Sequence record: OR845352.1
Source of the DNA: Escherichia phage ECO95 1-6-1
DNA: 3,161 bases
Reading direction: 5' to 3' (one strand)
Each line of letters opens with the position of its first letter. Positions within the stretch are counted from its first letter, which is position 1. The position numbers and the translations under genes are program-made. The notes under the pieces are model-generated. The model ran no database searches and had not been told where the DNA came from. It saw nothing but the letters and a program-made list of their open reading frames with translations. Positions 1,451-1,706 of the stretch are shown one piece after another.

Positions 1451-1502
1451 GACCTTATTCCTAATTCAATAGAGCAAATCCCCTCAATAAAGGGGGTAGA
1501 GC

Positions 1503-1706
1503 ATGTACCGTATGGACAAAATCAGAGAATGGTTCAGTTACAGCTTCGGAGGACTGACTGCGATGGGTGGCATTCTCTCCCTGAATGACTGGGCTGTAAT
1601 CGTTGGTATTCTTTGTACTGTCGGCACATTTGGCATCAACTGGTACTACAAACGCAAAGAGCGTGAGGACAGATTGAATGGCAATGTCACCGGCACTACG
1701 AAATAG
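1503..1706 (+). CDS. S: Class II (two-TMD) holin, S21/pinholin-like, 67 aa with dual-start motif
   Basis: Strong SD (AAAGGGGG at 1489-1496, 6 nt upstream). N-terminus MYRMDKI gives two in-frame Met codons (1503 and 1512) separated by a basic residue, the holin/antiholin dual-start arrangement seen in S21 (MKSMDKI). Two hydrophobic segments: a Gly/Ala-rich TMD1 ([18 protein letters not shown]) and TMD2 ([20 protein letters not shown]), then a charged C-tail (KRKEREDR) resembling the S21 tail. Confidence 0.85.

Follow-up and report, generated by a model that had tools for sequence, protein, structure and literature searches.

The DNA analysed here, a stretch of 3161 nt that we call the window, comes, judged by its sequence, from a lambdoid, P22-like Salmonella phage and covers the late-control and lysis region. 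Window positions 1300-1720 share 98.8-99.8% identity with the Salmonella phages S107, BTP1 (Lederbergvirus) and vB_SosS_Oslo, and E. coli prophages also hold close relatives of this segment. The annotated features all lie on the plus strand, and their order along the window is Q, pR', two tRNAs, leader, class II holin, phage-21-type SAR endolysin and Rz/Rz1. At the upstream end, ninH (160-363) precedes the gene for the Q antiterminator (520-1038), the end of which is overlapped by a pR'-like late promoter (1016-1045; TTGACA-18-CATAAT, 11 of 12 matches in a promoter scan). This promoter is followed by a tR'-like terminator (~1054-1098), a hairpin of -19.3 kcal/mol with a U7 run behind it, and the presence of both elements indicates that the holin is translated from a Q-dependent late transcript. 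Genes for tRNA-Asn(GTT) (1101-1175) and tRNA-Thr(TGT) (1182-1257) come next, and then a late leader (1300-1498) that blastn and alignment identified as homologous, at ~94% identity, to the lambda leader upstream of S. Near the end of this leader, a hairpin (1478-1497) sequesters the Shine-Dalgarno (SD) sequence AGGGGGU (1491-1497); folding and alignment with lambda and P22 identify it as a homologue of lambda sdi. The class II holin gene (1503-1706; 67 aa, Pfam PF16080) opens with the dual-start motif AUG-UAC-CGU-AUG (1503-1514; Met1-Tyr2-Arg3-Met4), and its 3' end overlaps by 29 nt the gene for a SAR endolysin of the phage 21 R/RrrD type (1678-2181; PF00959). An Rz spanin gene (2178-2645; PF03245) follows, with Rz1 (2398-2583; PF06085) embedded in it.

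The two tRNA genes (1101-1257) are inserted between pR'/tR' and the lambda-type leader, where lambda and P22 are without them at the corresponding place, and the insertion means that tRNA processing sites precede the holin message on the late transcript. These tRNAs were the only matches in an Rfam scan of the window, which returned no family competing for the hairpin site. The leader contains another hairpin at 1339-1385 (-25.8 kcal/mol, z -3.9), followed by GUUUUGCCC, which is conserved with lambda and carries the label 'terminator' in the record of phage MG40; presumably, Q-modified polymerase reads through it as a second late terminator. At the other end of the window, an AT-rich segment with T-runs (2650-3108; 36-38% GC) separates Rz from the next gene, which starts at ~3109 and corresponds to rha/KilA-N in BTP1 and S107. 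We found no convincing ORF in 2650-3108, and the BTP1 annotation shows no gene there.

The holin matched PF16080, the HP1 holin family, well above the cut-off (74.7 bits against 28.8; E 5.6e-21). Its score against PF04971, the phage 21 holin S family, was 20.1 bits, below the gathering threshold of 26; BLASTP against S21 gave an E-value of 0.35, that is, no detectable homology, and no NCBIfam model matched. The hydropathy profile nevertheless runs parallel to that of S21, with a weak first transmembrane domain (TMD1) and a strong TMD2, and the C-terminus is charged (KRKEREDR). Public records call this protein only 'holin' or 'class II holin', without an antiholin. The product of the neighbouring gene is ~94% identical to the endolysins of PDB entries 3hde and 4zpu (R21, RrrD; E 1e-105), and this identity includes the Gly/Ala-rich N-terminal SAR segment. 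By these matches, the holin and its neighbour are a class II holin/SAR endolysin lysis system. The endolysin ORF begins Met-Ala-Met (1678-1686); its alignments with R21 and RrrD start at the second Met. In phage MG40, the endolysin is annotated from a start past the holin stop, with 471 nt instead of 504; the first residues would be lost with that start.

A first-pass annotation of this DNA had noted that the holin begins MYRMDK, with Met codons at 1503 and 1512 and an Arg between them. Direct reading confirmed this: the AUG codons occupy 1503-1505 and 1512-1514, and UAC and CGU (Arg) stand between them. Of 49 distinct holin start contexts, 46 have the dual start, and the pattern M-x-(R/K)-M or M-R-M is conserved to ~50% protein identity. 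Down to that level, the N-termini of 31 aligned homologues read M-[Y/Q/H/T]-R-M or, in Yersinia and Providencia, M-R-M; DNA loci add M-T-K-M, M-A-R-M and M-K-R-M. In the homologues, a conserved D/E-K comes right after the motif. Codon 2 is variable, and the basic codon 3 is encoded by CGU, CGC, AGA or AAA; that the residue stays basic despite such varied codons points to selection on the protein rather than on the RNA. The S gene of Stx phages (MNQM) has an extension without a basic residue. In one close relative, L094, GGAGGUGAAAACCAGAAAUG is found where the others have GGAGGUGAGGCUAUGACCAGAAUG, and the protein begins at the Met of MDK; this locus appears to have lost AUG1. By analogy with known two-start holins, the 67-aa form from 1503 is most likely a putative antiholin and the 64-aa form from 1512 a putative pinholin.

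Immediately upstream of this motif, the same annotation had paired UCCCCU (1479-1484) with AGGGGG (1491-1496) across a 6-nt loop. All six pairs hold, and A1478-U1497 extends the stem to seven. By direct reading, the 5' arm is AUCCCCU (A1478, U1479, C1480-C1483, U1484), the loop is CAAUAA (C1485-A1490, 6 nt) and the 3' arm is AGGGGGU (A1491, G1492-G1496, U1497), which is the SD itself; the stem thus consists of an A-U, a U.G, four C-G and a U-A pair. From U1497 on, the spacer UAGAGC leads to AUG(1503) UAC CGU AUG(1512), and the distance from GGGGG to AUG1 is 6 nt, or 5 nt when U1497 is counted into the SD. The predicted duplex of the main SD with the 3' tail of 16S rRNA has an energy of -13.0 kcal/mol, and the phage MG40 record places the ribosome-binding site on this G run. 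The spacer that follows gives an anti-SD duplex of only -2.1 kcal/mol; AUG4 is separated from the SD by 15 nt and lacks one of its own.

RNA folding of this region, which had been suggested along with the proposed stem, returned the hairpin as the minimum-energy structure in all contexts tried (24, 51, 121 and 141 nt). The isolated hairpin has an energy of -10.2 kcal/mol and a z-score of -2.60, with one of 200 shuffles equally good; in the 51-nt context, z was -2.34 and three of 200 shuffles were as good. When only the sequence upstream of the SD in the window was dinucleotide-shuffled, 22 of 200 shuffles still paired the SD equally well, and such shuffles discriminate poorly because the C-run survives shuffling. 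The folding statistics for the window sequence by itself are only modest; the claim that the pairing exceeds chance rests on comparison.

Two natural alleles of the hairpin occur, as seen when window 1478-1497 is set beside L040:1479-1494 and its relatives. The allele with GGGGG and loop CAAUAA (7 bp, -10.2 kcal/mol) is found in ~20 of 82 IMG/VR loci, the window included; the allele with GGGG and loop CAAUGA or CUAUGA (5 bp, -7.5 kcal/mol) is found in ~62 of the 82 and in E. coli STEC719. The deletion of a single G lowers the strength of the stem and of the SD together.

For the comparison, we used a register-free measure, the probability that five SD bases pair with upstream bases, and took as controls 149 other ATG+SD contexts in the loci of the holin set. 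The median probability was 0.97 for the 49 distinct holin starts and 0.32 for the controls. The window, whose SD (GGGGG) the first-pass annotation had rightly placed inside a stem, scored 0.99, and only 2.7% of the 149 controls reached 0.95. Counting each independent hairpin type once, 13 of the 15 types reached 0.7 as against 15% of the controls (binomial p 2e-9; Mann-Whitney p 3e-6). Relatives of the holin in Citrobacter, Raoultella, Kluyvera, Klebsiella, Yersinia, Pectobacterium and others have leaders unrelated to that of the window, and nearly all of these non-lambda leaders contain a hairpin whose 3' arm holds the SD and whose 5' arm differs from case to case. Examples are CACC-CCGA...UCGG-A-GGUG, CACC-CGC...GCG-A-GGUG, UCCGU...ACGGA, CGCC-A-UCCGA...UCGGA-GGUG and CCC-A-CCC...GGG-A-GGG. 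An SD-containing hairpin was also found at phage 21 S (for which the sequence was taken from phage phi458, 100% identical), at Stx-phage S and at ev243 S.

Formal positional covariation of the stem is not claimed. A covariance-model alignment of the hairpin and start contained one pair with a double change (AU to UA, in 2 sequences), and pairing was 84% versus 83% in shuffles, with 33-60% when the partners were slid, which means that the shuffle control was not exceeded. The model aligned by sequence, and positional covariation is almost absent because most sequences form a group with hardly any variation, whereas the registers of the divergent hairpins are shifted. The structural claim is based instead on the register-free SD-pairing statistics and on a compensatory pair between lambda and P22.

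The likeness to the lambda sdi structure, which the first-pass annotation had presented as an analogy, proved to be understated: with a leader ~94% identical to that of lambda, the 5' arm AAAUCCCC is lambda's own sdi arm. Blastn alignments of window 1300-1498 with the leaders upstream of lambda S and in other lambda-like phages end at window 1498. In the alignment, lambda reads AAAUCCCC-UUAUU-GGGGGUAAGAC-AUGAAGAUG (3' arm GGGGGU) and the window reads AAAUCCCCU-CAAUAA-AGGGGGUAGAGC-AUGUACCGUAUG; the arms are identical, whereas the loop, the spacer and everything downstream are different. P22, epsilon34 and SI5 carry a homologous but more divergent leader, with AAAUCCUCAC-GGUC-GUGAGG-UAAGAC-AUGAAAAAGAUG at the hairpin site. 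Here the P22 gene 13 stem CCUCAC/GUGAGG replaces UCCCC/GGGGG, and both arms are altered together relative to lambda.

In lambda, a GGGGG SD serves Met1 (element 1), a weak UAAG SD serves Met3 (element 2), an upstream stem-loop gates the GGGGG (element 3) and a further stem-loop is intragenic (element 4); the stem-loop containing the ribosome-binding site sets S105:S107 at ~2:1 (bioRxiv 10.1101/2025.05.14.654169; PMC3369941). Elements 1 and 3 are present and homologous in the window, whereas elements 2 and 4 are without counterpart. The window has UAGAGC in place of the UAAG that serves lambda's second start, and a search for a lambda-like intragenic stem-loop or second SD yielded none that was significant (region 1498-1580, z -0.39). 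Lambda S (S107 antiholin/S105 holin, Met1/Met3) further shares with the window the 5' arm, the GGGGG 3' arm, the 6-nt spacing between SD and AUG1 and a basic residue in the N-terminal extension, and the two hairpins are similar in stability (-9.7 kcal/mol in lambda, -10.2 in the window). The holins themselves are unrelated, that of lambda being class I with three TMDs and that of the window class II with two TMDs (PF16080). Moreover, the starts are 6 nt apart in lambda and 9 nt apart in the window, the lambda loop is UUAUU whereas that of the window is CAAUAA with an extra U-A pair, and the partner enzyme is a cytoplasmic transglycosylase in lambda and a SAR endolysin in the window.

P22 gene 13/13' (class I, Met-Lys-Lys-Met) has in common with the window the genus Lederbergvirus, the genome position, the homologous leader, an SD hairpin at the equivalent place and starts 9 nt apart. 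Unlike the window, P22 has the stem CCUCAC/GUGAGG and a lambda-S-like holin that is paired with the soluble gp19 lysozyme. Phage 21 (S21-71 antiholin/S21-68 pinholin) resembles the window in having a class II, two-TMD holin with a Met1/Met4 dual start and a short form that begins MDK. The parallel with S21 drawn in the first-pass annotation is borne out at the RNA level and in the neighbouring gene: phage 21 S has an SD-containing hairpin (UCCGU/GCGGA) and starts 9 nt apart, and the endolysins are ~94% identical. The leader of phage 21 S is different, and its basic residue is at position 2, whereas that of the window is at position 3. The start usage of phage 21 S and the antiholin role of its long form reportedly go back to Barenboim 1999. 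HP1 hol, the type member of PF16080, resembles the window in its two TMDs, in being partnered by a SAR endolysin and in the predicted pairing of its SD; in contrast to the window, HP1 is a P2-like myovirus with an unrelated leader. Experiments have shown this hol of Haemophilus phage HP1 to be a pinholin that works with a SAR endolysin; a dual start is absent, and no antiholin is known for it (PMC7312051).

On the analogy with these systems, we consider it reasonably probable that the hairpin restricts access to the SD, and that initiation is thereby split between two products, a 67-aa antiholin and a 64-aa pinholin, which sets lysis timing. Q-antiterminated transcription from pR' (1016-1045) would proceed through the two tRNA genes and the lambda-type leader into the holin gene. 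In the resulting message, the 5' arm AUCCCCU would mimic the anti-SD of 16S rRNA and compete for the SD AGGGGGU. With the stem open, the 30S subunit would pair with the SD and, the 6-nt spacing being optimal for AUG1, would start there to give the 67-aa form. With the stem closed, the SD would be unavailable and initiation would take place at AUG4, 9 nt downstream and without a strong SD, to give the 64-aa active pinholin. The extra Arg3 would hinder the weakly hydrophobic N-terminal TMD1 from leaving the membrane and so make the long form an antiholin; a passage of PMC9636201 that cites Barenboim 1999 gives the same logic for S21-71, in which the antiholin hinders TMD1 exit. Hairpin stability (-10.2 kcal/mol), weighed against SD:anti-SD pairing, would then determine the amount of holin and the antiholin:holin ratio, and these two quantities would determine the time of membrane depolarisation and of release of the SAR endolysin (1678-2181). 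We infer from lambda, from phage 21 and from conservation that both starts are used and that the stem affects their ratio, and the antiholin role of the long form would follow by the same analogy.

The hairpin might instead act as a general throttle, which lowers ribosome loading and sets lysis time through the dose of holin while the choice between AUG1 and AUG4 stays unchanged. We hold this to be rather unlikely, but HP1 hol makes it a serious rival, since its SD is hidden although it has a single start. Both HP1 hol (UUCCU/AAGGA, P 0.74; L255:4833-4890) and L121 (P 0.88) are single-start holins that pair their SD upstream, so the hairpin is not specific to dual starts; the idea that it is exclusive to dual-start genes is ruled out by these two loci. 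Hiding of the SD may be a general property of holin genes, independent of a dual start. In addition, with AUG4 lacking an SD of its own, both starts may rely on one SD and drop together, and in lambda the holin translation rate alone shifts lysis time (bioRxiv 10.1101/2025.05.14.654169). Three observations speak for an effect on start choice instead. The homologous stem of lambda is reported to set the S105:S107 proportion (PMC3369941; bioRxiv 10.1101/2025.05.14.654169); L094, the one close relative that is missing AUG1 and has the short-form start only, is also without the hairpin (P 0.22); and the 6-nt spacing makes SD pairing favour AUG1 specifically.

A further possibility is that the stem has merely been carried along in the lambda-type leader by mosaic recombination, with a single Met used and no role for the hairpin. 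As the whole leader is conserved, conservation of the stem in this leader type alone is no evidence of selection. The 94% identity to lambda over the entire 200 nt of leader would fit such carriage, as would the label of recombination 'boundary sequence' that the CUS-3 record gives to the corresponding region and the weaker 5-bp stem (-7.5 kcal/mol) of the commonest allele. However, the differences from lambda fall in the loop and spacer and spare the arms, the arms show compensatory changes in P22, different hairpins have evolved at the equivalent place in holin relatives whose leaders are unrelated, and conservation of the two Met residues and of the basic one extends to ~50% identity; we therefore regard a stem without function as quite improbable. 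Hardly credible is a non-translational element, either a minus-strand intrinsic terminator or an RNA processing/stability hairpin: a scan flags the reverse complement (CCCCTTTATTGAGGGG then ATTTGCTCTA) as terminator-like, but its T-run is poor and one such match is about the shuffle level (mean 0.6), every window gene is on the plus strand so that nothing converges at the hairpin, the plus-strand stem is followed by AGAGCAUG with no U-run, and the stem coincides exactly with the SD across many unrelated leaders. The terminator reading of the palindrome was rejected, its sole match being this weak minus-strand one at chance frequency.

Among 120 IMG/VR loci with a lambda-type leader, only two downstream modules were found, lambda S (MKM...) and the present holin (MYRM...). 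Each module has its own loop and spacer, which places a mosaic joint inside the hairpin-to-spacer stretch, at ~1485-1502. By direct reading, the 11 nt GGGGGUAGAGC match lambda at 8 of 11 positions and non-lambda relatives of the holin likewise at 8 of 11. A tentative reading, which we put forward as possible but somewhat doubtful, is that the hairpin straddles this joint. The anti-SD arm AAAUCCCC would then belong with the lambda-type leader, and the SD arm, spacer and dual start with the holin cassette; the leader would impose sdi-type control on any incoming holin cassette with a G-rich SD, and the hairpin region would be a preferred exchange point. If this is true, the recipient cassettes are lambda S (class I) or the PF16080 holin (class II), the two natural alleles are lysis-timing variants, and truncated relics of a hairpin plus dual start in other enterobacterial prophages are scars of cassette swaps.

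With division of initiation between the two starts as the preferred reading, the hairpin is an ordinary new example of textbook lysis-timing control, the lambda sdi stem-loop placed on an unrelated two-start holin, and it leaves the understanding of lysis control unchanged. Records of P22, epsilon34 and HK97 already annotate holin/anti-holin pairs; in the literature searched, there was no earlier account of a dual start or stem-loop for this holin or phage group. The finding extends the design of lambda, P22 and phage 21, a dual-start holin with a hidden SD, to a third holin family, PF16080. The holin described here occurs widely among P22-like Salmonella phages, BTP1 being one of them, and among E. 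coli prophages. The many unrelated leaders give comparative support to SD occlusion as a general design of enterobacterial phage holin genes. These genomes should be annotated with both a holin and an antiholin, and the two stem alleles found in nature lend themselves to testing how stem stability tunes lysis time. A mild twist is that a lambda anti-SD arm would here serve an unrelated holin cassette across a mosaic joint.

Second, upstream copies of an SD hairpin with a dual start were seen at L098:884-927, L092:674-719 and L107:205-249. The ORFs behind these copies are truncated, reading MTRMSIICSGV* (11 aa) and MHQMDKLREDNF... (34 aa), and they resemble remnants of holin 5' ends that cassette exchange at this boundary left behind. 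In Entomohabitans teleogrylli (L106:1453-1510), the sequence AAAUCCCC-GGAUGGU-GGGGU stands ahead of a distant class II holin relative of the M-R-M type, and thus presents a lambda-type 5' arm within an otherwise different leader.
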